Shown: in pieces, positions 628 to 62,942 of the stretch
Layout: each line of letters starts with the position of its first letter
How positions within the stretch are numbered: the first letter of the stretch is position 1
From: a virus
Taxonomy: Duplodnaviria > Caudoviricetes
Reading direction: 5' to 3' (one strand)
DNA: 64,000 nucleotides
IMG/VR virus record: IMGVR_UViG_3300001528_000378
Span: 64,001 to 128,000 of that record
Translations under genes and position numbers: made by a program
Notes under the pieces: model-generated
Told to the model about the DNA's origin: nothing
What the model saw: the letters and a program-made list of their open reading frames with translations, nothing else
Database searches by the model: none

Positions 628-927
628 CTATTTATCCTCACTATTAATTAAATTCTGTAATGGGTACTTATCATAAGGGAACTTTGGGTCAAAATCCAAT
701 TCTGCTGTAAAGTTCCATCTATCTTTAACACCAGTAGTTTTTACTTTGCAAAAAACAGTTACTCTTTGGTTCAAGTTTTTAAGTATACCTCTTTCAATAT
801 TTCTAAGAGTAGATTCTGGGATATCAAAAGATGAGGTTATGGTTACTACATTACCATACCTATTGCGCCCCACTAAGGTTGTACAACCATTTGTTAGGGC
901 CTCTACAAACTTTTTTGTATTATTCAT
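628..927 (-). CDS. hypothetical protein
   Basis: ORF track 628..960; ATG at 927 overlapping the upstream stop is the likelier start. Confidence 0.6.
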   Translation of the reverse strand: MNNTKKFVEALTNGCTTLVGRNRYGNVVTITSSFDIPESTLRNIERGILKNLNQRVTVFCKVKTTGVKDRWNFTAELDFDPKFPYDKYPLQNLINSEDK

Positions 928-3061
928 TATTTCTATTCTCCCATTCTTTTCTAAAATCAATTAGAGACATATCACTATAATAGTTATCAAAAGCATATCT
1001 TAAAATTGATTTCATTTTATCGTCATCTTTTAGGTTATTAATATCCTCAATATTTAACTTATTATTAATAATCTTTTCAAGATATGAGCGAACTTTCTTC
1101 CAGAATTTATAATAGGGAAGTTTAATTTTTAACATCCTATTGTTTCTGTCTCTGATAACATATCCTTCAATCATATAATCATTATCTTTTAATTGCCATA
1201 GTACATGATCAATATCGTGGTCACATTCTATACAATACATATATTTTCTACAAATTACAAATTTACTAGTTACTTCACACAATTCATTATAAGAATATGG
1301 TTTAAACTCAAATTCATTTCTGATAATGTCTAATAGGCATACTTGTTTTTCTTCATACTCAATAATATGACTATCATGTTCTGGATCAATAACTTCAAAC
1401 ACAAATGTAACATTATTATCTTTTAAGTATTGTTTTAGCTCATTAGTTAAATAATGTTTATCTTCAAGAATTTGTTTGAACCAATCTTTATAATCACCAT
1501 AATCAACGGACTTGGTAGCAATAAAGAAGTCATCAGTTTTAGGATTATAAGACAACAACCCAAGATACCCATTTTCTTTATAACTGATGTCAAATGGCGG
1601 TTCAAATTTTTGTAATTGCTCCTTCGTTAACTGGTCTTCATTAAAAAATTTGTCATAACTACGTGCTACAATCTTGCCAGTTTCGCTATCAATGAATAGA
1701 CCTCTTGCTTTACAAGTTAATTCGTCCCATTTCTGTTTATAAAAGGCTTCTCTGGTAAAGTTATAGGACACAATACCATTATCAAGATATTTCTTTTTAA
1801 CTAGGTCGCTATTATTTAATTGTTCAATAATCTGTTTTTCGTCTTTCGTATCATTTTTAGGTTCGTTAAACTGCTCAACTCTCGTTTCTTTACCATTAGA
1901 AATTAATACATTTAATGGCTCATTGTACTCAACCTCAGAGTTTAAAGCATAAAAAGTTTCGCCAAATTTAATTTTAGATGCTTTTCTATGTCCACAAACT
2001 TGGATACTACCATTGTTGTCATTAACATACTTGTTAGCCACATAATCGATATCTTCATATTCTCCAACACCTTTAATATAGTTGTTGGCAGAGTGGAACA
2101 AACTAAGTTCATAGTAAGGGATTCCAGCATGATTAATGCAAAAATATTGATTATCTACACTAACAATAAAGTTGGTTTTTAGTTTACTTAAAAACAATTT
2201 AATTTTGTCCTTTGAGATATCCTTAATTTGTTCGTATGTTTTACCTTTAAATTCTTTGGATCTAACGCTGTCTAGACCAAAATAAACATAATCTCTTAAA
2301 TGTCTTTCATGGTTACCTTCACAAAAGTGAAAGTTACTTCTGTCACAGTTATAGATTAGCCATTCAAGTGTTTCTTTGTTGTAACAACCTCTGTCAAGAT
2401 AGTCGCCTACAAAGAAATAATCTGTATGCTCATTATAGGGGTGTTTTTTAAAGTATTCGCCTACTTTATCAATTCTACCATGAATATCAGAAAATATAAC
2501 AATATTTTTTGCAGTAATAAGATTTAAACCATCAATTCCAATATCATGCCAAATATTATCACCATAATTTCCTTTTACTCTATAGTAATCAATATAGTTT
2601 TCACCAAAGGTGTCAATGAACCATTGTTTGGAATTTTCTAAATTTTCACACATTCCTTTAATAACTTCCTCAGAAACAATTTTATAGGAATCTCTTTCTC
2701 TATTTTGTTCAAGTAATTTATCATAAGAAATAGACGAAAAGTCAACACAAACCGCTCTATATTGATAAACCTTAGCCAATTCTAGAAATTTAGTTACAGA
2801 TGACTGCTTGGTATTTGTAGCATCAATAATGGTAGTATCACCATTTTGCATACGGATTTCAAGCAATTTATAAAGAAGTTCAAATACTCTCTTATTAAAT
2901 CTTTGCGTAATATAGCTATTCCCATCCTTATCCATATATATAGATGAGAACATAAGTCTAATTTTATCTGTAGAAAGAGTTAAATCCTCTAATCCATTAT
3001 CTTTAATAAAAGTAGTCTTGCCAGAACCAGGGGCTCCATGAAGAATAACTAATAATTTCAT
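920..3061 (-). CDS. polynucleotide kinase / metallophosphatase / Rnl1-type RNA ligase fusion (RNA repair)
   Basis: P-loop GAPGSGKT with IIDATN; phosphoesterase DIHG, GDYLDRG, GNHE; ligase KENG, FEVI, EGYV, KIK; start at MKLL behind GGAGGG. Confidence 0.9.
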   Translation of the reverse strand: MKLLVILHGAPGSGKTTFIKDNGLEDLTLSTDKIRLMFSSIYMDKDGNSYITQRFNKRVFELLYKLLEIRMQNGDTTIIDATNTKQSSVTKFLELAKVYQYRAVCVDFSSISYDKLLEQNRERDSYKIVSEEVIKGMCENLENSKQWFIDTFGENYIDYYRVKGNYGDNIWHDIGIDGLNLITAKNIVIFSDIHGRIDKVGEYFKKHPYNEHTDYFFVGDYLDRGCYNKETLEWLIYNCDRSNFHFCEGNHERHLRDYVYFGLDSVRSKEFKGKTYEQIKDISKDKIKLFLSKLKTNFIVSVDNQYFCINHAGIPYYELSLFHSANNYIKGVGEYEDIDYVANKYVNDNNGSIQVCGHRKASKIKFGETFYALNSEVEYNEPLNVLISNGKETRVEQFNEPKNDTKDEKQIIEQLNNSDLVKKKYLDNGIVSYNFTREAFYKQKWDELTCKARGLFIDSETGKIVARSYDKFFNEDQLTKEQLQKFEPPFDISYKENGYLGLLSYNPKTDDFFIATKSVDYGDYKDWFKQILEDKHYLTNELKQYLKDNNVTFVFEVIDPEHDSHIIEYEEKQVCLLDIIRNEFEFKPYSYNELCEVTSKFVICRKYMYCIECDHDIDHVLWQLKDNDYMIEGYVIRDRNNRMLKIKLPYYKFWKKVRSYLEKIINNKLNIEDINNLKDDDKMKSILRYAFDNYYSDMSLIDFRKEWENRNNE

Positions 3062-3072
3062 TTTAAACCCTC

Positions 3073-3246
3073 CTATACTCTTGATGTCAAATGATAACCT
3101 AAACATTCTTGACAAAAATAGATTCTCAAATTTACTTTGCGCTTCTTATGGATTCTATTAATAGCTTCTTGCGCAAGTTGTTCAGTTTTATAACGTTTCT
3201 TTTTTAAACAAGAAGAAACTAAACTCTTTAATTGTTCCTCAGACAT
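3073..3246 (-). CDS. 57-aa putative Zn-binding protein (not in ORF track)
   Basis: MSEEQLKSLVSSCLKKKRYKTEQLAQEAINRIHKKRKVNLRIYFCQECLGYHLTSRV; TAATG coupling; paralog at 22333-22512. Confidence 0.8.
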   Translation of the reverse strand: MSEEQLKSLVSSCLKKKRYKTEQLAQEAINRIHKKRKVNLRIYFCQECLGYHLTSRV

Positions 3247-27212: not shown

Positions 27213-28010
27213 TTAGAATAAACTACCTGTTTTGGTATCCTTACGTCTAATGACATTATGGACTTTATCATAATACCAATACTCACATAAATCCCAAATA
27301 TCATCCAGCTTTCCATTGACTTCGTCCACCTTACAACCAGGTGCTTCCCCCTGTAACTTACTCAAAAACTCCTTTTGGTAGTCATCGGTTATGAAAGCTG
27401 TCAAGTTTATGCTATCACAAACCTTTATATTTATAGAGTCTAAAATATTATCTAACGTGTCATCCAATGACACTCCGTACTGGTAGTTATTAATAGCTAC
27501 ATACGTAGATATTAATACTCCCATTTCCACCTCGTCTGTACCCCCATTAAGGGCAATTCTTTCCAAGAAGTCTTTGGTATTATCTGCATAAAATGGGATA
27601 AAACCAGAGCAAGGAGTAAACTCTCTTTTTAAGAATGCCTCAAAGTATGGGTGGTCCTTTACTCTATTAATAAGTTCCTGCACGGTAAAGGGCATCTCTG
27701 TCTGGTAGATGATGACATCCGTTTCATAATTATAATACTTTGGAGAATGCACAAAACATCTTACCAAACGGAAATCACTGGGTAAGTATGCGTCAATCCA
27801 ATTATCTGCAACGGCCTGCTGGTAGTCATCACAGTCAAAAGCATCCCACAAAGGGGTATTATCCAATACCCTTTGTATCGTTTCGTCATTTGACCACAAA
27901 TCAAAGTCCTGCTCACTATTTAAAAATACAGACTCATAAAAGCCTGCGAAACCAAAGGACCTAGCTTGCACTTTTTTATCATTTAAATTATTTTTCATAG
28001 ATGCCTCCAC
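27213..28010 (-). CDS. acidic hypothetical phage protein
   Basis: FAGFYES..SPKYYNYETD..SGFIPFY; own promoter at ~28020-28048. Confidence 0.75.
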   Translation of the reverse strand: MEASMKNNLNDKKVQARSFGFAGFYESVFLNSEQDFDLWSNDETIQRVLDNTPLWDAFDCDDYQQAVADNWIDAYLPSDFRLVRCFVHSPKYYNYETDVIIYQTEMPFTVQELINRVKDHPYFEAFLKREFTPCSGFIPFYADNTKDFLERIALNGGTDEVEMGVLISTYVAINNYQYGVSLDDTLDNILDSINIKVCDSINLTAFITDDYQKEFLSKLQGEAPGCKVDEVNGKLDDIWDLCEYWYYDKVHNVIRRKDTKTGSLF

Positions 28011-28051
28011 ATAAATACATTATATCATATTATGGGTATATTGTCAATACT

Positions 28052-28636
28052 CTATTTTACAATTTCCACCATAAAGTTTTCCCTCCAAAAATCGTTCTCT
28101 GTAACCTCTCTAAAAATAGAGGTACTATCAAAAACTTTGGGAGAATATCCCCTAACAAAAGTAGTTCTATTAATTTTGGTAACATACTTACCAGTATTTT
28201 TATCCTTTATGATAAACTTAATAGACGAAGCACCATCCATCAAAGCCTTGTATAATGCTTCCCTACCTTCTTTATAGAAGGCTTGTCTTAAAGCTTCAGC
28301 TCTATTAAGAAAATGTTTCTTATTCCTGCTGGTAGAGGCGTACTTTAACGCTTTATTATATAGCGTATAAATACGATCATACTTTTTTAGGTACCCAAAG
28401 TACCTAGCTAAATTTGCCACGTCCAAATATTTGTTTTTTCCCTTTTGAAACTCTCCGTGCAAATAGTCCAAAAGGATTCTTTTTTCCAATTCCCCCCTAC
28501 TATACCCTTCATTTTTCCCAAGCGTCCACTTATTATAATATTTTGGAAACTCGTTGCTAGAGGCGGACACAACATCTGCCACATACCCATTATCCCCTTT
28601 TCGTACCCTTAAATTTTTTACAATTTCGTAAGACAT
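28052..28636 (-). CDS. hypothetical protein
   Basis: 194-aa ORF, GGGGG RBS. Confidence 0.7.
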   Translation of the reverse strand: MSYEIVKNLRVRKGDNGYVADVVSASSNEFPKYYNKWTLGKNEGYSRGELEKRILLDYLHGEFQKGKNKYLDVANLARYFGYLKKYDRIYTLYNKALKYASTSRNKKHFLNRAEALRQAFYKEGREALYKALMDGASSIKFIIKDKNTGKYVTKINRTTFVRGYSPKVFDSTSIFREVTENDFWRENFMVEIVK

Positions 28637-28644
28637 ATACCCCC

Positions 28645-28905
28645 CTATTTATTAATGTTAATTGTACCCTCTTTGATCAATTTTTCAATCCCCTTTTTAT
28701 TAAGGAATTTATTATCAATGCTACTATATTCTTTTAAAAATAAGTAGAGATGTCTCAATGTCGTACGGGAATAATCCCAGTCTTTATACAAGGTTACTTT
28801 ATTTCTACTAACACTAGCAATTAAAGACTTATAGGATTGGAAATAAACAGTCCCCTCATTTGAAATAATGTATTGATTGTTATGATAATATTTCTTTACA
28901 AGCAT
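28645..28905 (-). CDS. conserved small phage protein
   Basis: NQYII..YFQSY..WDYSRTTLRHLYLFL. Confidence 0.75.
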   Translation of the reverse strand: MLVKKYYHNNQYIISNEGTVYFQSYKSLIASVSRNKVTLYKDWDYSRTTLRHLYLFLKEYSSIDNKFLNKKGIEKLIKEGTININK

Positions 28906-28989
28906 ATTAAACCTCCTTTTTTGGTATATTATTAGATGCTTATCTTAAAACAAGCACAAGCGGATATAGGCGGATAGGATGGGGGGCAG

Positions 28990-29565
28990 TTAGCGGTCCG
29001 CCCAATAGGTAAATGTGTTTAACTTTTCAGCCCCGTATTTTTTCCACCAAACAGAGAGTCTTTTTTCAAAGTCCGCCAAAACTTTTTTATAGGCGGATAT
29101 AATCATTTCCCGCTCCGCTTTATCCAAACATACCACGGGTATAACATCTGGCATTTTTTCGTGCTTTTTTAATCCGTTTTCAATTTCCCCGCAATCCGTT
29201 AAATGATCATAATTCTCCCATACCAATCTAGCAGTTCCGTTGTACAAGTACATCACCCCAAGCACATAGGGGTATTGCATACAATTTTCCCTTTCCAAAG
29301 TCTGCACAATTTTCTGTAATTCTTTGGTATTTCGGTAGATAAAATAATCCTTCATTTTATCCTTATTTTTAAGCAAATCCTTATAAAGCTCAAAGTTTGG
29401 ACCTTCATCATAAAAGCTGAAGTTTTTTTCAATACAGGGCTGATTAATTCCCAATATAGTACCATTAAATTGCACAGCATCGGCGGTATGTTTTTGCAAC
29501 CCTTTGGCCATCCTTTCATTGGTAGGCCAATTTCTTTTGGCATATACTTTTATTAGTTCTTTCAT
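28990..29565 (-). CDS. hypothetical protein
   Basis: 191-aa ORF, GGAGG RBS. Confidence 0.75.
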   Translation of the reverse strand: MKELIKVYAKRNWPTNERMAKGLQKHTADAVQFNGTILGINQPCIEKNFSFYDEGPNFELYKDLLKNKDKMKDYFIYRNTKELQKIVQTLERENCMQYPYVLGVMYLYNGTARLVWENYDHLTDCGEIENGLKKHEKMPDVIPVVCLDKAEREMIISAYKKVLADFEKRLSVWWKKYGAEKLNTFTYWADR

Positions 29566-29583
29566 AAATACCTCCCCCCCCTA

Positions 29584-29745
29584 TTAAGGACGTAGGGGGC
29601 AACCATCTAATTTTCCACAATCCGGAGTTTCCGCGTCAAGGCACGGGCAAATATAAGTAATAAAAGTCTCGTCAAAGCCCCTAGTTTCTGCGCGGATGGG
29701 GCAATCTATACAATTTTTAGGAAATGGGATATTTATCTTTGTCAT
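29584..29745 (-). CDS. 53-aa Cys-rich protein (not in ORF track)
   Basis: MTKINIPFPKNCIDCPIRAETRGFDETFITYICPCLDAETPDCGKLDGCPLRP. Confidence 0.7.
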   Translation of the reverse strand: MTKINIPFPKNCIDCPIRAETRGFDETFITYICPCLDAETPDCGKLDGCPLRP

Positions 29746-29760
29746 AAGTACAACCCCCTA

Positions 29761-29979
29761 TTAGATACCTAAAATAATCTTATAGGTATCTGTCTTTTTT
29801 AGATATTTTATAGATACCACGTAACAATTCCACGATTTAAGTGTATCATCAAAAACGGTTACGTCATCCGCAAGTTCAAAGTGCTCCCTATAAATGACAA
29901 ATACACATTTTTCATTATCATAATAATCTGTATTTTTTAAAATTATGGTAGTCATAGTATACCTCCTTATAAGTCGCAA
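29761..29979 (-). CDS. hypothetical protein (likely start MTTII)
   Basis: AAGGAGG RBS. Confidence 0.6.
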   Translation of the reverse strand: MRLIRRYTMTTIILKNTDYYDNEKCVFVIYREHFELADDVTVFDDTLKSWNCYVVSIKYLKKTDTYKIILGI

Positions 29980-30272
29980 ACCAAAGAATAAACATATCTA
30001 CAAAGTGTATTATATTGTTTATTCTGCCAATAGTCAAGTAAAATATCTTTTTTATCGGCAAGAATTGCGTTCATTTTCTCTAACTTTTTACTAGACTTGC
30101 GCCCCTCTAATAAGGTAAAGTAAAAATTTCCCTCGTCAAAAGGGGAGTACTCCGAAATAGTTATTCCACCAAGTTTGCGCTCCCTTTCTTTCTGGACGTG
30201 TAGGTTATATTCCCCCTCGCTATGTGAAATATGTATATCTAAAACAAAATTATTTTCTAATGCTACTTTCAT
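29967..30272 (-). CDS. hypothetical protein, first gene downstream of the promoter battery
   Basis: GGGAGG RBS. Confidence 0.7.
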   Translation of the reverse strand: MKVALENNFVLDIHISHSEGEYNLHVQKERERKLGGITISEYSPFDEGNFYFTLLEGRKSSKKLEKMNAILADKKDILLDYWQNKQYNTLCRYVYSLVCDL

Positions 30273-30883
30273 AATACTACCTCCCTTGGTACTCCTATTC
30301 CATTATATAATCACACACGCCCCCCCCCATATGGCGGTTTGTGGCGGATATGATTGTATAATGGAGGGGGTATATTTAACTAGGTTAGGTACTTATATTT
30401 TGTACCTTCTATTGTACCCCCCTCCTTTTTTTTTTACATTTATTTCCTTTTTTTAGTGTTTGATTAATTAACAAGGGAAATCACCCCCGCCATCACGGCC
30501 TAGGCCTTTTATTTGGTATCATAGTTCTATTTTTGGTACAAACATAATGCAATATCTTATATGATCTCATATATCCTACCTTCACACTAGTATATTGATC
30601 CTCCCCTATTATTTTTTGCCGTGCAAAAATAAGTTAGGTTATCACTTTATATTAGATGTTGGGAGTTACTTTTTATGTGCCACATATCCCTTTTTACATT
30701 ATTTTTGTATCAATTTTTCCAATAGTTATATTGGTATATTTTTTGATACTTTTCTTAAATTATCAAAGATCCGTATTTTAATTATTTATCATATTTGCTT
30801 ATCAATCCTAATAATTTGATGCTATCTGGTTATCATCCATTGATAAACTCTTTATGACTGGTTTTTAAAATACCACTGTATAC

Positions 30884-31728
30884 ATTATAGCATATTATAA
30901 TATCATTGTCAATAGTCTTTTAATGATACATATGCAAACTAATAAAGATAGATTGTACGACTATATCCGTACCGCTCTCTATATAGGTATACTTGTAAAG
31001 ATCTATGAGCTCCTTTTAACATTAGCCCCTCGTTTCCTTCATACTTATATTATAGCATATTTTACTACTCTTGTCAATACCTTTTTTATTTTAGAGGTGG
31101 TATTTGTTTTCCCCTATACTTATAGCATAGCATATTTGGTTTTGATTGTCAAGGCACTTTTCCAAGTCCGTTTGATCTTTACCATCTGCTTTACTATACT
31201 TATATGTTAGCAAATTTTGATATTGATGTCAAGCCCTATTTTTATTCTTTTAGAGGCACTTGCAAATATCTTTTTTGCTCCCTTCATACTTATATTATAG
31301 CATATTTTGGAACTAATGTCAAGGCGCTTTTTCCAAGCCCTTCAATTAATACCCTTCTGCTATACATATATTATAACAAATAAATTTAACATTGTCAAGG
31401 GCCTTTTTTATCCCCTTATAATTCCTTATCTGCTATACTTATATATTAGCATATTTTACGGATTATGTCAAGGCCTTAATTTTAAAACACTTTTTTAATA
31501 GTGGTATATTATACCATATTATGATGCTTAAGTCAATACCCTTTTTTATGTGTTTATTAGCTTACGGCCTGGGCCTCTAATGATATTTTACAATTTTAAA
31601 AGACAGATGTCAATAGGTATTTTTATTCTATTTTACCCATATCCTATATTTTACCATATTATTAGACAGATGTCAATAGGCTTTTTATCCCATCTTTACA
31701 TTATATCATATTTGAAGCATTTTGTCAA
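30884..31728 (-). promoter_or_regulatory. tandem array of 11 sigma70 promoters
   Basis: -35 hexamers begin (plus coordinates) at 30907, 31072, 31147, 31227, 31317, 31393, 31466, 31531, 31608, 31671, 31723; each exactly 17 bp from TATAAT/TAAAAT/TAATAT/TAACAT/TATGCT. Confidence 0.9.
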
Positions 31729-32165
31729 GTGCAGCTCATAGATTCCATTAATACATACTACCATAAAAACACGGAGAAACCCCTAGCAGAATCGTAACTT
31801 ATCCCTATATTTTAAGGGTTTTTAAAAAGTGCCCGTTTGTCTGTTTTATATCTATTTTAGGTATTTAATGGAGCATTTCATAGGTTAGTCTTATTATATG
31901 TTATCTAATGCAAATTAATTAGATATCTAATACTACAAAAGTTTAGCATCCCCTAGTGATTCCTTAATTTATCCCTATATTATAAGACTTTTCTTATCTA
32001 ATATAAATTAATTAGTATTAATACAATCTGTGCCTAATTATGTAAAACATCCTAAAAGCCTCTATTTCATTTTTACCTATATCTACCTACCAGCTATAAA
32101 TAAAAACCGTTCCTAGGGCATTTTAGGGCCCTTTACGGGCATCCTAGCAAGCATATCTAATAAAT

Positions 32166-32191
32166 AAAAAGGGCACCAATTGGTGCCCTTT
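32166..32191 (-). terminator. intrinsic terminator / perfect palindrome
   Basis: AAAGGGCACCAATTGGTGCCCTTT then T tract on minus strand. Confidence 0.7.
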
Positions 32192-32211
32192 AAATAAAAC
32201 ACAATCATACT

Positions 32212-32373
32212 TTATTTGTCATAAATGATCCAGCTACTTCCCAAATCCCCGGGATCCTTTACCACCAAAACAGAATTATCACAAGTTAGGCCCTTCTTGT
32301 AACATACATCCAGCATCTTATTAATACCTTTACCTCTTGCCAAAACTAGTCTCCCGTGCTTCTCTCCGTTCAT
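32212..32373 (-). CDS. 53-aa protein in its own promoter-gene-terminator cassette
   Basis: MNGEKHGRLVLARGKGINKMLDVCYKKGLTCDNSVLVVKDPGDLGSSWIIYDK; AAAGGAGG RBS. Confidence 0.75.
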   Translation of the reverse strand: MNGEKHGRLVLARGKGINKMLDVCYKKGLTCDNSVLVVKDPGDLGSSWIIYDK

Positions 32374-32400
32374 ACCCTACCTCCTTTATGTATTTATTAT

Positions 32401-32669
32401 ATCCTAGCATATTATTAGATAGATGTCAATATGTATATTTAATAACACAATGTTTTATACCATATCCTACAATGCCCTTTAATTAAGCAAAATTGCCCCT
32501 TCCTGCGACTTTTATTTGTAGCTGGTACCTGTATACCCCTCAAATCGTTATAGAGCGTTTTGATGTGTCTGCATATATATTATACCATATTAAAACTTAT
32601 ATGTCAATATCCTTTTTACATCCCAGATTGGGGGCTTTGCATTATACCATATTATCTCGCACCAGTCAA
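32401..32669 (-). promoter_or_regulatory. three further tandem sigma70 promoters
   Basis: -35 at 32424, 32602, 32664; 17-bp spacers to TAGGAT, TATAAT, TATAAT. Confidence 0.8.
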
Positions 32670-33105
32670 TACCTATTTTTAACATACGCTAACATCTAAA
32701 ACTCTTTACGCCTAATATCACCTCATCACACGCTAGCATTGCTAGTAAAGCTAATTATCCCTATTTTTTAAGCATTTTTGCCCCTTAATGCTATTATATC
32801 CCACTCCACATACCACTGTATAGCCCTTGCTCCAAAAACTTGATATAAAGCATTATAGCACGCTTGGCAGCCACCACAGTTTTCCCTATATGGCCGCTTT
32901 CCCCCGCTTGCCAAAATTAAGAGTAGCGGATATAGACCGATGAAAGTGGGTTATCAGATACCAAAAATTCTATTTTTAAATTTTGGAAAAAATTTTGCAA
33001 TACCAACCACAAAAAAAATTATAAAAAATTTTTTACAACTTTTTCTACAATAATAGGGTCTAACTGAAACTGAATTAGACCTTTAATTATTCATTTTGAG
33101 ATATA

Positions 33106-33792
33106 TTATTTAGGCACTATACTTAACTGTGTTCTAGTTTGTATATCTTCAAGAATTTGTCTACATATGGGAGTTATATCCGACTCACTAACAATCTGCT
33201 GTTTATTAATTCTATTATAAATAGTTGAGTATGTTATACCCGTTTTTCTAGCTATATCACAAACGGGTAATAATTCTCCCAGGTATAGATATTTCTTCCC
33301 CCAAGCATTTCTATTGTTCATATTCTCTTTATGTGAGACCCAATGACAGTTATCTGGTGTATAGTTCCCATTGTTATCGATTCTATCTAATTCTAAGTTA
33401 TCTGAGTAGCCTGTTATTTCTGCCCATGATTTAAACACCTTATATCCATCTACTTTATCTAACCACTCGGAGCAAACCTGTATACCTCTACCGCCATATC
33501 TTTCATAGTTAATATTATTTGGGTTTGTACATCTATCAATCATCTTGTACCAGATTCCGTAAAGCCTTTCGTAACTCTTACCTCGTAGTTTATTACAACC
33601 ACAATTAAGTTTATGTTTTAGATAATAAATACTGGTTGTAAATTTATTCCCGCATTTACATTGGCATAGAACGGTATAATTGACCACATCTACATATAGT
33701 ATTATTACATCTCCAAATTTAGCCCCTATCGTTATATCAGATAGGTAGATTGATTTATATTTCTTTACATTTGTGTTAACTTCACCACTCAT
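33106..33792 (-). CDS. HNH homing endonuclease
   Basis: CQCKCG; YGGRGIQVCSEW; LELDRIDNNGNYTPDNCHWVSHKENMNNR. Confidence 0.88.
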   Translation of the reverse strand: MSGEVNTNVKKYKSIYLSDITIGAKFGDVIILYVDVVNYTVLCQCKCGNKFTTSIYYLKHKLNCGCNKLRGKSYERLYGIWYKMIDRCTNPNNINYERYGGRGIQVCSEWLDKVDGYKVFKSWAEITGYSDNLELDRIDNNGNYTPDNCHWVSHKENMNNRNAWGKKYLYLGELLPVCDIARKTGITYSTIYNRINKQQIVSESDITPICRQILEDIQTRTQLSIVPK

Positions 33793-33986
33793 ATTTTTAT
33801 TCTCTCTTATAACTTATTTACATAATTCTTTAAACTATCTTTAACTTCTTGAATATTTCCTAATAACCTACTATTTTAATACAATTAATTGTTTTATATA
33901 ACCATAGTCTAATGTAATATACAGCATACTTCCTTTATCAACTATGGAAATATTATCAATAGCGCCTTTATACTTATAATTTAGAA

Positions 33987-34499
33987 TCATACATTTAATT
34001 CTTTCTTTACATTTCCTATATAGTTAATTAATTCTTGGTCTGAAATTATCTGATAATCCCACACATCTATGCCTACATTGATGTTTAGTATCTTACTATT
34101 CTTATCATAATAGTGTTTCCATAGATTATGTACATGACCACATATATGTATTGGTAGTTTATTCTGTGAGTTTGTAATTGATGGATAATGAGATGCACTT
34201 ACTTGATATTGTCCCAATGTGGTTATTATTAAATCTGCCACCGAACTTACTTTATTATTTTTATCATGATTTCCTTTTATATTTATAAAAATTGGACTTA
34301 TCTGATTTATATAGTAGTCTTCTTTACACCCAAACACAAAATCACCCAAGTGTATTAGAGTATCATTGGTAGATGTAGTATTGTTAATGGTATCTATTAG
34401 TTCTGCATCCATTTGTTTGGTATCTATAAAGGGTCTATTGCAATACTTTATGATATTTGTGTGATTAAAGTGTAAATCAGATGTCCAAAATCTATTCAT
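33987..34499 (-). CDS. calcineurin-like metallophosphoesterase
   Basis: SDLHFNH, HLGDF, GNHD, SHYP, GHVH, NVGID. Confidence 0.9.
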   Translation of the reverse strand: MNRFWTSDLHFNHTNIIKYCNRPFIDTKQMDAELIDTINNTTSTNDTLIHLGDFVFGCKEDYYINQISPIFINIKGNHDKNNKVSSVADLIITTLGQYQVSASHYPSITNSQNKLPIHICGHVHNLWKHYYDKNSKILNINVGIDVWDYQIISDQELINYIGNVKKELNV

Positions 34500-34512
34500 A
34501 ATATTTAAAATA

Positions 34513-34866
34513 CTACCTATTATATAAACTAGATAGTCTATTGGTAAGTTCTGTTAAAGACTCAAAGAACTCATTATAAGGAAGTAAAGAATCAGATAGA
34601 GGCTCTCTTAAATAGTAGATTTCTTTACCAGAATTGTAATTATGATAGATGTCCAAAATAAGTTCTGGCTTTATGGATTCTTTACTCTCTGTATCATAAG
34701 CATAATACTTACCTATGATACTCACAGTAGATAGTAAGTCCTCATTATGATAAGTAAGATGATTATGGTTATTTGTATAAGAATATAACTCAAACTTATC
34801 TAACTTCTTAACCATCTTACAAATTAATGATTCAATATATTTATAATCAACTTTAGTCTTAGTCAT
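34513..34866 (-). CDS. hypothetical protein
   Basis: ORF in operon. Confidence 0.6.
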   Translation of the reverse strand: MTKTKVDYKYIESLICKMVKKLDKFELYSYTNNHNHLTYHNEDLLSTVSIIGKYYAYDTESKESIKPELILDIYHNYNSGKEIYYLREPLSDSLLPYNEFFESLTELTNRLSSLYNR

Positions 34867-34867
34867 A

Positions 34868-35260
34868 TTATTTTTTCTGTAATAGGCTAATTACTTTGTT
34901 ATTTGCCTCTTCATATGTGCAAAATACTCTGTCTTTTTTGTAAACATCAATATTATTGGCTTTTACATCTCTAAGACAGTAATTATAGTCATCATGTGCA
35001 ACATAGTATTTGGTATCAATAAAGATATTTGGATATTCACCCAATACTACATACATCTTCCACTGTGTATCGTTTACTTCATTATCTGGAGTCATTCTGG
35101 TGAAACAAATAGATTTAATATCATTTAATTTATCACACATTTTTAATGCTCCTGATTTGGTATAGCAGGAATATACTTCCACAGTATCCGCAAATCCAAC
35201 AGTTAAAAACTTATTACTGATGAGACTATAGTACACCTTGTATTTTTTATTCAAAAACAT
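34868..35260 (-). CDS. hypothetical protein
   Basis: AGGAG RBS. Confidence 0.6.
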   Translation of the reverse strand: MFLNKKYKVYYSLISNKFLTVGFADTVEVYSCYTKSGALKMCDKLNDIKSICFTRMTPDNEVNDTQWKMYVVLGEYPNIFIDTKYYVAHDDYNYCLRDVKANNIDVYKKDRVFCTYEEANNKVISLLQKK

Positions 35261-35547
35261 ACACTCTCCTTAAAAAATATTGATAAAAACCATCCCTACA
35301 AACCCAACTAATAAAGATCCTACAACTACAGTTGCTCCAGCTAATAAAAATTCCATATTAAATGCCTACCTTATCCGCCGGAGTAAAGGTAAATAAAGTA
35401 GTACGATATTTACCACGTTTAAGTAATGCTCTGGAAGCTCTGTAAATTCTAGTTTTATTCTTTTTCATATCATATCTCCTTGTTTATAAATATAGTATAG
35501 CAAATATTCGTTCCTTTGTCAAGTCTAAAATTAAATTCCCCTTTTGA

Positions 35548-35808
35548 TTATTTATCATTATATTGGTCTAACAGCCTTTTAAGTTCATTCTTTGCCTTAT
35601 TTATGGCTGATTTCTTGTCCAAAAACAAGTAGGGATGGTCTTTTTCAGTAAAATAGTCCACACAACCATCGTCAAAAATAACTGTTACACCCTTTTTATC
35701 TGTATCTTCCTCTATTATGTCTACTTTTACCTCTGAAATTGAGAAATTTACCCCTAAATAGTACAGTTTTTGACCATTTTTAAGCGTTTTTGCATCATTT
35801 TTTGTCAT
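35548..35808 (-). CDS. hypothetical protein
   Basis: ORF in operon. Confidence 0.6.
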   Translation of the reverse strand: MTKNDAKTLKNGQKLYYLGVNFSISEVKVDIIEEDTDKKGVTVIFDDGCVDYFTEKDHPYLFLDKKSAINKAKNELKRLLDQYNDK

Positions 35809-36649
35809 TTTGGAAGTCCTCCCTATGGCTTGATATATCGTCGTATTTATAGGTTAAACCTTGGAATTTTACCTTATTTTCCTCTAAAAAACACACTTTT
35901 TTCTGTTTTTTACTGTGTTTTTGTATATATTTCCTAACTTCTGGGTCTAAACTATATATGAAGCACTTATTTTTGTTCACCCTATGTCTTATTCTATTAT
36001 ACTTTTCTGGAAATATAAGAGGATAGCAGGTTAATAGCCACTTATTCTTTGGTAATAATCCCATTTTTAGAAATTTATCCCGATTTGACTTAATAAGTTT
36101 TCTTATACGCCCACTTGGAACCAGCCTTCCAGCATAATCAATAAAATTTAATATCCTCACAAGTCTGTAATCTGTCAAATATAACATATATAACTGATAT
36201 ATTGCTATGCTCACCCCCTTAAACTCTGGCATATCTGACTTATCAGTTTTTATTACTGGGGATATGTTAACACACCTATTAACTTTTGTTTTAGAAAATA
36301 CTTCATCCACTAGGGAGTTCACATTTGAAATGGTATCATAAACCGCTTGTGCCCCATACCTTATATACAGACCTGTATGATACAAATGTGCTCCTTCATC
36401 CACCACTACAATCCTTGATTTAGATGATGCTTCTTTGGCTGTTGATATTAAGTCAAAAGTTTCATTTCTTCTTTCTTCTTGAACTACAAATAAAATAACT
36501 TCTGGTTTATATATTTTACAAAATCTAATTAAAGATTCCTTATCACCACAAGAACCTATAAAAAAAAGTTTACTCTTATCAATGTCCATCGTGATAAGAG
36601 TTCTCAATAATTCTTTCTTGCAAACAAGTAATAGCGATTTAGAATCCAT
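35795..36649 (-). CDS. hypothetical protein with receiver-like N-terminal domain
   Basis: YKPEVILF..DLISTAKEASSKSRIVVV..YGAQAVY pattern. Confidence 0.5.
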   Translation of the reverse strand: MDSKSLLLVCKKELLRTLITMDIDKSKLFFIGSCGDKESLIRFCKIYKPEVILFVVQEERRNETFDLISTAKEASSKSRIVVVDEGAHLYHTGLYIRYGAQAVYDTISNVNSLVDEVFSKTKVNRCVNISPVIKTDKSDMPEFKGVSIAIYQLYMLYLTDYRLVRILNFIDYAGRLVPSGRIRKLIKSNRDKFLKMGLLPKNKWLLTCYPLIFPEKYNRIRHRVNKNKCFIYSLDPEVRKYIQKHSKKQKKVCFLEENKVKFQGLTYKYDDISSHREDFQNDKK

Positions 36650-43961: not shown

Positions 43962-44088
43962 GTTTCAAATAACAATTATTTCTTATATTTATAATATACT
44001 AAATTATTTTACTATTGTCAAGTTATATTTTTATTTTTTTACTATTACTTAACAAATATATTATAGCATATTATTCTAAGTTTGTCAA
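43962..44088 (-). promoter_or_regulatory. tandem promoters plus boxA-like element heading the RNA island
   Basis: TTGACA-17-TATAAT (44060-44088), TTGACA-17-TATATT (43993-44021), then TTGTTATTTGAAAC. Confidence 0.7.
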
Positions 44089-59714: not shown

Positions 59715-62700
59715 TTATTTTTTATCTGCTTGCTTTAAATCGACAAACTTGCGCCTCTTAAACTCCCAGTCACGACGAACAGGGTTCCAGTCCTCAACTT
59801 TTGTAAAAAATCCAATTACACGAGAATAGTGGTCAAAGGATTTGTTACCACATTTAGGACAAATACTTGCATTTCCAACAACAACATTGTGGCACTCTCT
59901 ACACTGACTATATACTACATTAATAGCAAAGTGTTCACAACCACACTCAACTGCATGTAGAATAATATTTTTAGCCTGAGCGGATGTTACCTTACTATTT
60001 GCTTGAGCATGAACAATACCACCACCAGACAATAATTGGTTATATTTTCCATCTATATCTAACCTTTCATAAATAGTTGCATCATGCCATAACGCACAAA
60101 ATTGGTTTGCATACAAGGGGTCTAAATTATATGGATTACCATAAATTAACTTATCTGCATCAGCCAAACGAACTCCAAAACTTTCAGCAGGGATTTGCTC
60201 CACATTAAAAATAATACCATTTTCTTTAGAGTATTTTCTGCACATCTCATTAAACTTGACTAGAATATCACCCATATAATCAAAGTCATTTTTACCATAC
60301 TTTTGTAAAATAATTTGCTGTGCTTCAACAATACCAAGAACACCAAAAGTGCTAAACATATGACTCATGTTAATCCAACCATTTTTTAAAAATGGTTCTA
60401 ATCCAATAGCACTTAATTTTTTAATTAATACTTTATGTGCCTTTAAAATTTTTGCAGCAGATTCCACACGTTTATCCAATAGTTTCAAGTACTCATCATA
60501 ATTATTGGTTTCATACGCCAAACGAGTAAAATTAATTGTAACAACTCTATGTGATCCAAGAGAAATATTACTACCACCAAAACTATTAACCGAAGCACCC
60601 ATATCCATTAGTTCTGTGTTATTTATCATCCGGCAATTATGCGTAATAATACCATTTGCAATTTGGAACAGGTGATTGTCATTTTCTACTGTAAAATCAT
60701 ACACATGCACACCCTTTTTAGTTTTTATATGTTCAATTTTTTCAATTTGAATACCATAATAGTCACCAAAATCACTTAACACAGTGGATTTAGAAAGAGC
60801 ACCTCTTCCATTTCTCCAATCCTGTAATGGTTTTAATTTAAGTTTATCATTGTGCATAATTGAAATAACACAATCATTTCCATTACTACCATTTCTATAA
60901 CCACATCTAATATTTACAGAGTTTGCAAGAGCAACCAAATCCATACCTAGTTCTTTATTGGCAATATGGATAGATACATAATCACCCCTCATATTATCAC
61001 AAGTATGACCATTACCTTCAATAAAACCCTCTAAAAATCCAATTCTAAAATCATAACTCATATTAAAAATTCTAGAACGTAAACGCTTATCGGTACATAA
61101 GTTCCCAACAAAGAAATCTCTCATTGTAGCATGAGCCATTCTACTATTGATGGATACTCTTGTTGAATTTGGCCAAATGTCAGAAACTGTGACATTGGTT
61201 GTTGCTGCTAATCTATCTTTGGAAAAATTTACTACAAAATCTTGTAGTTCTTTTTCTTCAGTATGAAAGGAAAGTGCAATATCAGTATTACGTCTTATAT
61301 CATACTGACCCTCTGCCCCAAATAACCCTACAAAACGTCCAAAATCGCGGTCACCCCCGAGAATACTATCATAGGAAATATTCTTGGATACAGGAAGCAT
61401 ATCCCCAACTTTTAAGTCATTAGCTTGAACTTCTACCAAAGATCCATTATTTAATACTTTTACAGATGGGTGGTCAAGTGTTGTTGTTATAACTAACCCA
61501 CTTTTCAGAGTCACTTTATTCAAAGTTCTATTTTCATTTAAGATTGAAAATCCATTGGTTATTTTAGTAAAACCATTCGCACCCATAATCTCAATTACTT
61601 TATTTTCTTTGGATTTATCCCATATATCAAATAACTGTTTTACAGTAATATAACGCACATAACCATCCACCCTTGCGATCACTTTTGTTGTTGAAGTTAA
61701 GCAGCAGCTTGCTATTTTCGTACCATAGGAAGTGAAAATATTATACTTGGAAATATCCTTAGTTAGCATATAGGACAGCAACTCATTATCCTTACTTAAC
61801 TCATCTTTTCCTGTCTCTTCATTTTTATGCTTTGAAAAATTTACAGTAACAACAGGAAATCTATAATTAATTCCACCGTTAATTGTATCCCCTTTATCAA
61901 AGAAATCTACAAAGATTTTTTGTAATTCAAACACATAATCTTTTACAAAATTTTTATAGTCTTCATTTGAAAGTTTATATTCTTCCCCACCCAAATTATT
62001 ATCTACACGAACCTGAACTTTATTTGGGAAAAGCCATCCATAGTTTTCATCAGACAAAAATGTATCTAATTTTTCTTTATCAAAAATAGAGATATTTGTA
62101 AATGGGCTTTCATTCCCATTACGAGATAAAAAGTTCACTGAGTGAACAAACTGTTGAAATTCATTCTCAATACGTTTTCTTACTACTTTATCTTCCTTAA
62201 TAGAGGATAAGGGAATACGCTCTTTGTAAATCAATAAGTGAGCACAGTCTGTAAAAAATGAACCAATAGCAACTGCACCAGCCAAATGAGAGGCGAGCTG
62301 GTGCACTGTTTCACACAAGGCAGAAATATAAGAGGATAAACGCTTTGATGGCTTTGAAGGAAGTGTACCAAAATCACGTCCAGTAGTAATTAATTTTGAA
62401 GCATCAATAGCATAGCAATATGGGATCAAAATATTAGAACTATCTGATAGACCCAATGAGAAGTCATACATCTCTCCACATAACCGTTTTGCTTCGTCTT
62501 GGCCATATAATTCTTTCATTGTACGATAAAGCATATCATACCCAATAATTTTATCTGCTGGTAATTCCAAGTCCTTTAAGACACCCTTGATACTCTTCTC
62601 ACCCTTATTAGCATTTGCATCAATAGAGATATCATTGATGTTAGAACTCATATATTTTGAAAACCCATTAATAAAATCAAAATTGTCTTCATGTAATCCA

Positions 62701-62942
62701 TGAATTTTGAGTAAACCGTCAACAATAGATTTTAATTCACCATTTGTTTTACCATATTTTTTCTTTAATGTTTTAACTAATGTTTCTCTGATATTTTTGA
62801 TAGTTCTGGTTGTACCAGCGTCCGCAAATGTTTTATCAGTAATCTTATCTAGTTCTGCTTGATACTGCTTATCATCTAAATCTTGAATATATTTATCATT
62901 ATAATTAACTTTAATAGGCTTTTTTACCAATTCATTTTCCAT
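59715..62942 (-). CDS. nrdD: anaerobic ribonucleoside-triphosphate reductase with intein
   Basis: PYC, ESPFTN, FPVVT, ASC|CR, EQIPAES, CxxC..CxxC, glycyl radical SRVIGF. Confidence 0.96.
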   Translation of the reverse strand: MENELVKKPIKVNYNDKYIQDLDDKQYQAELDKITDKTFADAGTTRTIKNIRETLVKTLKKKYGKTNGELKSIVDGLLKIHGLHEDNFDFINGFSKYMSSNINDISIDANANKGEKSIKGVLKDLELPADKIIGYDMLYRTMKELYGQDEAKRLCGEMYDFSLGLSDSSNILIPYCYAIDASKLITTGRDFGTLPSKPSKRLSSYISALCETVHQLASHLAGAVAIGSFFTDCAHLLIYKERIPLSSIKEDKVVRKRIENEFQQFVHSVNFLSRNGNESPFTNISIFDKEKLDTFLSDENYGWLFPNKVQVRVDNNLGGEEYKLSNEDYKNFVKDYVFELQKIFVDFFDKGDTINGGINYRFPVVTVNFSKHKNEETGKDELSKDNELLSYMLTKDISKYNIFTSYGTKIASCCLTSTTKVIARVDGYVRYITVKQLFDIWDKSKENKVIEIMGANGFTKITNGFSILNENRTLNKVTLKSGLVITTTLDHPSVKVLNNGSLVEVQANDLKVGDMLPVSKNISYDSILGGDRDFGRFVGLFGAEGQYDIRRNTDIALSFHTEEKELQDFVVNFSKDRLAATTNVTVSDIWPNSTRVSINSRMAHATMRDFFVGNLCTDKRLRSRIFNMSYDFRIGFLEGFIEGNGHTCDNMRGDYVSIHIANKELGMDLVALANSVNIRCGYRNGSNGNDCVISIMHNDKLKLKPLQDWRNGRGALSKSTVLSDFGDYYGIQIEKIEHIKTKKGVHVYDFTVENDNHLFQIANGIITHNCRMINNTELMDMGASVNSFGGSNISLGSHRVVTINFTRLAYETNNYDEYLKLLDKRVESAAKILKAHKVLIKKLSAIGLEPFLKNGWINMSHMFSTFGVLGIVEAQQIILQKYGKNDFDYMGDILVKFNEMCRKYSKENGIIFNVEQIPAESFGVRLADADKLIYGNPYNLDPLYANQFCALWHDATIYERLDIDGKYNQLLSGGGIVHAQANSKVTSAQAKNIILHAVECGCEHFAINVVYSQCRECHNVVVGNASICPKCGNKSFDHYSRVIGFFTKVEDWNPVRRDWEFKRRKFVDLKQADKK
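60636..61703 (-). mobile_element. 356-aa intein with LAGLIDADG endonuclease domain
   Basis: Starts CLTSTT, TLDHP block B, VGLFGAEG and LEGFIEGNG, VYDFTV, ends IITHN before Cys. Confidence 0.93.

Follow-up and report, generated by a model that had tools for sequence, protein, structure and literature searches.

A battery of 14 co-oriented consensus promoters in the leftward gene block of a large phage

The promoter array and its units

The viral record IMGVR_UViG_3300001528_000378 is a 158,131-bp contig with a 75-bp end overlap that reflects assembly closure. The 64-kb stretch analyzed here (bases 64001-128000 of the contig; hereafter the window, to whose positions coordinates refer unless stated otherwise) contains a dense array of sigma-A/sigma-70-type promoters. 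An initial annotation had listed 14 co-oriented consensus sigma70 promoters in this region without giving their strand; all 14 were found where it had placed them, co-oriented and on the minus strand, as matches to a strict promoter pattern (TTGACW, 17-bp spacer, TANNNT). Eleven of them, U1 to U11, follow one another in a row with successive periods of 165, 75, 80, 90, 76, 73, 65, 77, 63, and 52 bp, and the remaining three, U12 to U14, form an upper group with periods of 178 and 62 bp (Table 1).

The strict pattern occurred 35 times in the window, compared with 2.85 ± 1.47 times in shuffled sequence (12 times chance), and every one of the 35 matches lay on the minus strand. The whole genome (158 kb) contained 45 matches, all co-oriented with the local gene block, and 14 of these fell within 1.8 kb, a density roughly 39 times that of the rest of the genome. 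Outside the array, 23 of 31 strict matches were intergenic, mostly 6-240 nt ahead of a gene start. Two other tandem pairs were noted in the same genome, at window positions 44021/44088 (minus strand, 67 bp apart) and at genome positions 32605/32667 (plus strand, 62 bp apart). A mis-assembled repeat is an unlikely source of the array because the units have diverged from one another, and helical phasing of the units was rejected, as their periods are not multiples of 10.5 bp.

Table 1. Features of the promoter array and its surroundings. Promoter units are given in plus-strand positions, from the end of the −10 box to the start of the −35 box.
Feature	Coordinates	Strand	Remarks
First gene after the leader, 101 aa	29967-30272	minus	Strong Shine-Dalgarno sequence; further small ORFan genes follow
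Non-coding leader, 606 nt	30273-30878	minus	Fed by the row; predicted fold z = −6.6 vs. shuffles
boxA-like motif	30760-30772	minus	About 107 nt into the leader; aligned place kept in the relative
11-unit row U1-U11, sigma-A/sigma-70-type	30884-31728	minus	Periods 52-165 bp; no translated open reading frame between units
U1 promoter	30884-30912	minus	Strict pattern match
Small hairpin between U2 and U1	30955-30972	minus	Conserved in the relative; one compensatory change, G-C to A-T
U2 promoter	31049-31077	minus	Strict pattern match
U3 promoter	31124-31152	minus	Strict pattern match
U4 promoter	31204-31232	minus	Strict pattern match
U5 promoter	31294-31322	minus	Strict pattern match
U6 promoter	31370-31398	minus	Strict pattern match
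U7 promoter	31443-31471	minus	Strict pattern match
U8 promoter	31508-31536	minus	Strict pattern match
U9 promoter	31585-31613	minus	Strict pattern match
U10 promoter	31648-31676	minus	Strict pattern match
U11 promoter	31700-31728	minus	Strict pattern match
Gap without a strict promoter match	31740-32167	minus	Two copies each of a 48-nt and a 22-nt repeat; 12-bp palindrome
Strong intrinsic terminator closing the 53-aa unit	32168-32191	minus	10-bp stem, 6 G-C pairs, then a T run
53-aa open reading frame, sole credible gene within the battery	32212-32373	minus	Shine-Dalgarno sequence 7 nt upstream; behind U12-U14
Upper group U12-U14, three promoters	32401-32669	minus	Pattern match and unit alignment
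U12 promoter	32401-32429	minus	Strict pattern match; weak −10 box TAGGAT
U13 promoter	32579-32607	minus	Strict pattern match
U14 promoter	32641-32669	minus	Strict pattern match
Terminator after the upstream HNH endonuclease gene	33057-33081	minus	Insulates the battery from upstream transcription

Each unit carries a near-complete set of promoter elements. The −35 box reads TTGACA or TTGACT and the spacer measures exactly 17 bp in 14 of 14 units, and eight have a perfect TATAAT, the other −10 boxes being TATGCT, TAACAT, TAATAT, TAAAAT (twice), and TAGGAT. The extended TG at −15/−14 is present in 13 units, with U9 as the exception, and the column consensus at this place, AATATG, corresponds to the TRTG extension typical of Gram-positive promoters. 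When the units are aligned on the −35 box, most show an A-tract at about −46 to −41, which we take to be the position of the proximal UP subsite. Information content in the 14-unit alignment was restricted to the A-tract, the −35 hexamer, the AATATG block, the −10 hexamer, and an ATA discriminator. Pairwise identity between units was 80% in the promoter elements and fell to 39% in the spacer and 44% downstream (29% is expected from composition), in agreement with the initial description of the inter-unit sequence as variable and purine-rich (purines make up 60% of the bases on the transcribed strand of the 11-unit row). Given that only the promoter elements are conserved among units, the units appear to be old duplicates in which the promoter alone was retained, and we read each of them as being under purifying selection as a promoter.

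Little else could be accommodated in the row. A unit needs about 55 bp from its UP-like tract to its start site and the periods run from 52 to 90 bp (mean 72), so that the row is an almost continuous promoter with no space for an RNA or peptide payload. The statement that the region holds almost no genes was thus borne out, the sole credible open reading frame (ORF) of the battery being one of 53 amino acids (aa). The spacers of the 11-unit row proved not to be translated: their only combination of a Shine-Dalgarno sequence and a start codon lies between U2 and U1 and begins a frame of 27 aa, which is not conserved in the related phage described below. Along the row, plus-strand ORFs of 59-95 aa were dismissed as genes, being devoid of Shine-Dalgarno sequences, opposite in orientation to every neighboring gene, and built of reversed promoter repeats. 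The earlier proposal that the array functions to produce a nested set of short RNAs found no support, since any co-oriented promoters not separated by a strong terminator would trivially give such a set (no terminator of this strength was found inside the 11-unit row) and almost no room is left for a payload.

The relationships among units support expansion of the row through local duplication, as had been proposed. The units fall into sub-families (U2-U7; U10 with U12), two-unit repeats recur about 168 bp apart, and 28 identical bp are common to U2 and U5 (31036-31063 and 31281-31308). A looser sub-family, U8/U13/U14, was judged by eye from the common TGG context of the −10 box. Six units, U2-U7, continue after the −10 box as ATA(A/T)GTAT; like the periods and the 28-bp identity, this continuation had been described correctly. 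Among IMG/VR contigs, at least 113 loci (L180-L292, many of them from sample 3300045988) combine a 17-bp spacer, extended TG, and TATAAT with a following ATAWGTAT. The combination was single at 107 of these loci, doubled at five, and tripled at one, and it was five times rarer with an 18-bp than with a 17-bp spacer. Because promoter and initial transcribed motif are widespread together and depend on the spacer, the motif is better taken as a feature of strong promoters of the host group than as proof of recent duplication, and this type of promoter is probably the optimal one of a common host group.

The array consensus is identical to that of the early and middle promoters of staphylococcal Herelleviridae, which were validated by RNA-seq as TTGACW, 17 bp, TRTGN, and TATANT (PMC10383478). 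The units may accordingly be classed as complete and, by prediction, very strong housekeeping-sigma promoters of the early class of Firmicute phages.

A three-promoter relative, the leader, and the early-operon reading

One close relative was found in IMG/VR (G001; 170.5 kb), which is collinear with the present phage and has a terminase 85% identical. It carries three promoters in the homologous intergenic region, one of them with the −35 box TTGAAA. A check of relatives for arrays and copy-number variation had been suggested at the outset; it revealed the variation in copy number and no equally long array. The module consisting of U2, the hairpin, and U1 is conserved in the relative, and the hairpin is possibly a weak terminator or pause site. 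The relative also has a leader of about 620-650 nt (fold z = −3.6), with conserved patches and with hairpins at equivalent places. Genes upstream of the array are conserved between both phages; those downstream are not. Further searches yielded no additional relatives: none of 50,697 phage records matched the region by blastn, an IMG/VR search with flanking proteins (a 191-aa ORF and a phosphoesterase) found none, and a search with the conserved hairpin motif matched only the relative already known.

Given that the relative combines three promoters with a leader carrying a boxA-like motif, the ancestral design would have been two or three tandem promoters in front of a leader bearing boxA. U3-U11 would then represent an expansion of eight or nine units in the lineage of the present phage, and U12-U14 with their small gene are probably an expansion of that lineage as well. 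Two short segments between the promoter groups (32095-32126 and 32478-32527) match G001 29262-29293 and 29199-29248 in the orientation opposite to all flanking matches, which suggests a small inversion or rearrangement in this part of the genome.

Downstream, the row leads into the non-coding leader, whose two long predicted hairpins (30363-30425 and 30302-30362) immediately precede the first gene. Neither this gene nor the small ORFans following it are conserved in the relative. An Rfam search over 28000-36000 at permissive E-values returned no match for the leader, a spurious miRNA match being the sole result, and a metagenome scan with a 20-nt motif from the boxA region gave eight matches in unrelated DNA, a chance number, none of them adjoining rRNA. 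A CsrA-type or ribosome-sponge RNA was rejected, since GGA/GGAG motifs are not enriched on the transcribed strand. The leader may be a functional RNA or a region of processing or attenuation.

We consider it reasonably probable that the region is an expanded early-promoter battery and the main early control of the leftward transcription unit. Host RNA polymerase would load at any of the 11 units, transcribe across the remaining row, and run on into the 606-nt folded leader with its boxA-like antitermination motif, from which transcription would reach the small, fast-evolving early genes; U12-U14 would drive the 53-aa gene just upstream of the row. The units would fire early. An ancestor with two or three promoters would have gained the others by local duplication, each copy being retained as a promoter, and the multiplicity would let a single incoming genome capture polymerase faster or more surely, raise the flux into leader and operon, or do both.

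The folded leader also invites a reading in which the RNA itself is the product, the battery and boxA together making up an rRNA-operon-style unit for an abundant 606-nt non-coding RNA, with the genes secondary. The array does resemble rRNA (rrn) operons in its tandem promoters with A-tracts at the UP position, its boxA-like motif, and its highly folded transcript, and the fold is shared, with a less extreme z-score, by the similarly long leader of the relative, where conserved patches and hairpins occupy equivalent places. Yet rRNA operons have two promoters (P1/P2) rather than eleven, the transcript here is no rRNA, and the boxA-like motif is, by its sequence and its conservation in the relative, a candidate site for the recruitment of NusB/S10. 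The leader lacks an Rfam match, its conservation is patchy (about 50%, from two sequences), and long structured leaders of early genes can be mere sites of processing or attenuation. We regard this reading as unlikely, and give it about the same weight as the polymerase sink discussed below.

Upstream of the row, the 53-aa protein of the upper group belongs to no Pfam or PHROG family and has no Atlas neighbor, and its AlphaFold model (pLDDT 59.5) was too poor for a fold search. The gap between the groups is rich in repeats. The 48-nt repeat occurs in three copies, two in the gap (31775-31822 and 31945-31992) and one upstream of U14 (32731-32778), and a copy lies 47-62 nt upstream of the first promoter in each group. 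The 22-nt repeat occurs at 31901-31922 and 31994-32015, with the 12-bp palindrome at 31919-31930. These repeats may represent sites for a regulator, decayed units, or iterons. Just after the terminator of the HNH gene, an AT-rich stretch (about 32950-33050; L138 9020-9120) that includes a 10-bp palindrome (32951-32960) is kept in both phages. The HNH homing-type endonuclease gene itself (33106-33792, minus strand) is the immediate upstream neighbor of the battery; two copies occur in the relative, one of them 67% identical and the other, close by, diverged.

The row, the repeat-laden gap, and the AT-rich stretch might also act together as DNA, forming an origin of replication or some other transcription-activated site. 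Origins of T7 and T4 depend on promoters, the 48-nt and 22-nt repeats and the palindrome between the promoter groups are iteron-like, and the AT-rich stretch is kept in the relative. However, cumulative GC skew does not inflect here, the neighboring genes include no initiator, and the shorter region of the relative lacks the repeats; we therefore hold such a role to be quite improbable.

Genomic setting and comparison with known systems

The genome is that of a large tailed phage. Its terminase is 29% identical to that of Bacillus phage G, portal and prohead protease genes are present, and genes for a tail sheath and a baseplate wedge protein indicate a large myovirus rather than a short-tailed virion. 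About 90 kb of structural and replication genes occupy the plus strand. The minus-strand block spans 67 kb (genome 60.5-127.9 kb) with many small ORFs and six tRNAs, and the promoter row lies mid-block. The leftward block also encodes an anaerobic ribonucleotide reductase (NrdD; 59715-62942, minus strand) with an intein, a serine hydroxymethyltransferase (SHMT), an FtsH-like protease, a RuvB-like ATPase, and a 731-aa protein (920-3115, minus strand) in which polynucleotide kinase, phosphatase, and T4-type RNA ligase are fused into a tRNA repair kit; its identity to genes of SPbeta-like and staphylococcal phages is 33-36%. A replicative helicase region matches the LAGLIDADG endonuclease family (L010 13761-16349), and the genome is rich in selfish elements. 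The SHMT is 40-42% identical to proteins of one Lactobacillales and one Burkholderiales genome, which is uninformative on the host. The host probably has Firmicute-type transcription signals.

Of the systems compared, the early region of T7 is laid out much like the present array: strong, co-oriented, host-type promoters with no genes between them (A1, A2, A3) are followed by boxA, in the present phage a boxA-like motif, and then by long hairpins before the first early gene, in T7 an RNase III site before gene 0.3. The T7 boxA behind the host-type early promoters A0-A3 is genetically defined (PMC3709561). T7, a podovirus, differs in that its three promoters are about 125 bp apart and no more than 750 bp from the genome end, whereas the present phage, a myovirus, has 11 + 3 units with a spacing of 52-90 bp in the middle of a gene block.

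The initial annotation had suggested that the array, like the T7 promoters, drives genome internalization; on this view the row would be close to the leading end of the entering genome, and polymerases starting there would pull in the remaining DNA. The layout formally resembles that of A1-A3 followed by boxA, and all units point one way. The virion genes, however, include a tail sheath and a baseplate wedge protein, and contractile-tailed phages are not known to depend on transcription for DNA entry. Moreover, the leftward block extends about 33 kb on either side of the row, the terminase gene is about 45 kb away, and the relative has just three units at the homologous place. Both related assemblies close on themselves and thus give no sign of fixed ends; the contig ends of the relative fall within repeat-bearing fiber genes. 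An entry motor is accordingly very improbable.

The early and middle promoters of Herelleviridae (phage K, vB_SauM-515A1) and the host-takeover module of SPO1 share with the array the small, fast-evolving early genes behind strong host promoters; there the promoters are spread among the module genes, none in a dense row. The promoter islands of Escherichia coli consist of dense promoter-like sequences with many potential starts and are linked to silent, horizontally acquired genes (PMC7054387). They have in common with the array an unusual density of promoter signals in AT-rich DNA, and polymerase interference has been proposed for them (PMC3661553, PMC7054387). The array differs from an island of this type in that its units are discrete, non-overlapping, of full consensus, and confined to one strand. 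Promoter-island sites overlap and occupy both strands.

Three-in-a-row promoters were sought in 2.9 million IMG/VR contigs and were found at at least 112 loci. Among the matches listed, the longest chains had seven (L093), six (L025), and five (L060) units and belonged to unrelated genomes. These are likewise co-oriented rows of TTGACA-17-TANNNT (L093, about 1946-2440, minus strand; L025, 4652-5121; L060, 2601-2936) with periods of 62-103 bp. The surroundings were checked in L093 and L025, where co-oriented genes flank the row, and in L060 the spacer is identical in four units. They differ from the present array in having fewer units, in unrelated genomes, and none has been characterized. In SPO1, phage G, T7, and T5, matches to the strict pattern remained at background level and were never clustered (SPO1 has three in 132 kb, and A3 is the sole match in T7). 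We found no published phage promoter row of comparable size in the literature searched, which is weak evidence of absence. The 11 + 3 array is the largest promoter battery among everything compared.

What so many promoters may serve

If the array is an early-promoter battery, as we favor, eleven targets should capture polymerase sooner than one on a single incoming genome, and the spacing is such that about eight or nine polymerases could be on the 11-unit row at once. Several points weigh against this reading. The relative manages with three promoters, and therefore the extra units are not essential. Intervals of 52, 63, and 65 bp are smaller than the footprint of an open complex, so that neighbors at these distances would not be occupied together. 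Engineered tandem promoters in E. coli can yield less than their individual outputs added together, since elongating polymerases run into promoter-bound ones, a loss that a third promoter can worsen (PMC11339919); eleven units may therefore not raise output. Finally, the boxA-like motif rests on agreement with the B. subtilis rrn boxA consensus (PMC13753749) at 10 of 13 positions and on one relative, for a phage whose host, like the timing of its promoters, is deduced from sequence signals alone.

The same collisions bear on the idea, also raised in the initial annotation, that the row is a sink for host holoenzyme, acting mainly by binding and not through its transcripts. After replication to hundreds of genome copies, its tight sites would tie up much of the sigma-A holoenzyme of the host and starve host promoters. 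Tandem-promoter collisions stall or release polymerases (PMC11339919). The units are near-perfect in every element and are expected to bind tightly, hardly any payload lies between them, and copy number grew in the lineage of the present phage. No sigma-70 region-2 domain was detected in the phage proteins that would offer an alternative route to shut-off. Set against this, 14 sites per incoming genome are negligible beside the thousands of polymerases in a cell, and the 31 other consensus promoters of the genome would titrate equally well without being clustered. That a conserved leader, genes, and a boxA-like motif adjoin the row suggests a role for its transcripts, and the relative has only three units. 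A sink of this kind thus seems to us rather unlikely.

More generally, the row may be a cis-acting device that works through polymerase binding, with no product involved, and can be expanded in copy number, either as a landing pad by which a single incoming genome captures polymerase within seconds or as a trap for sigma-A holoenzyme after replication. We consider this improbable too, though less so than any of the other alternatives to an early-promoter battery. If it is true, the similar rows in unrelated phage contigs, with their five to seven units, would be signs of a general and undescribed phage strategy.

Tandem early promoters are textbook features of T7 and of rRNA operons, always in two or three copies; here 11 to 14 near-perfect copies have been kept. 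The array and its three-promoter relative form a natural series in which one may ask whether added promoters raise output, speed capture, or jam or trap polymerase. The units themselves constitute a ready set of promoters, predicted to be very strong, for low-GC Gram-positive hosts. Should the multiplicity do no more than boost the early operon, the array would be an extreme but ordinary case of early control; if it serves binding, it would represent a new route by which a phage competes for, or disables, the transcription machinery of its host.

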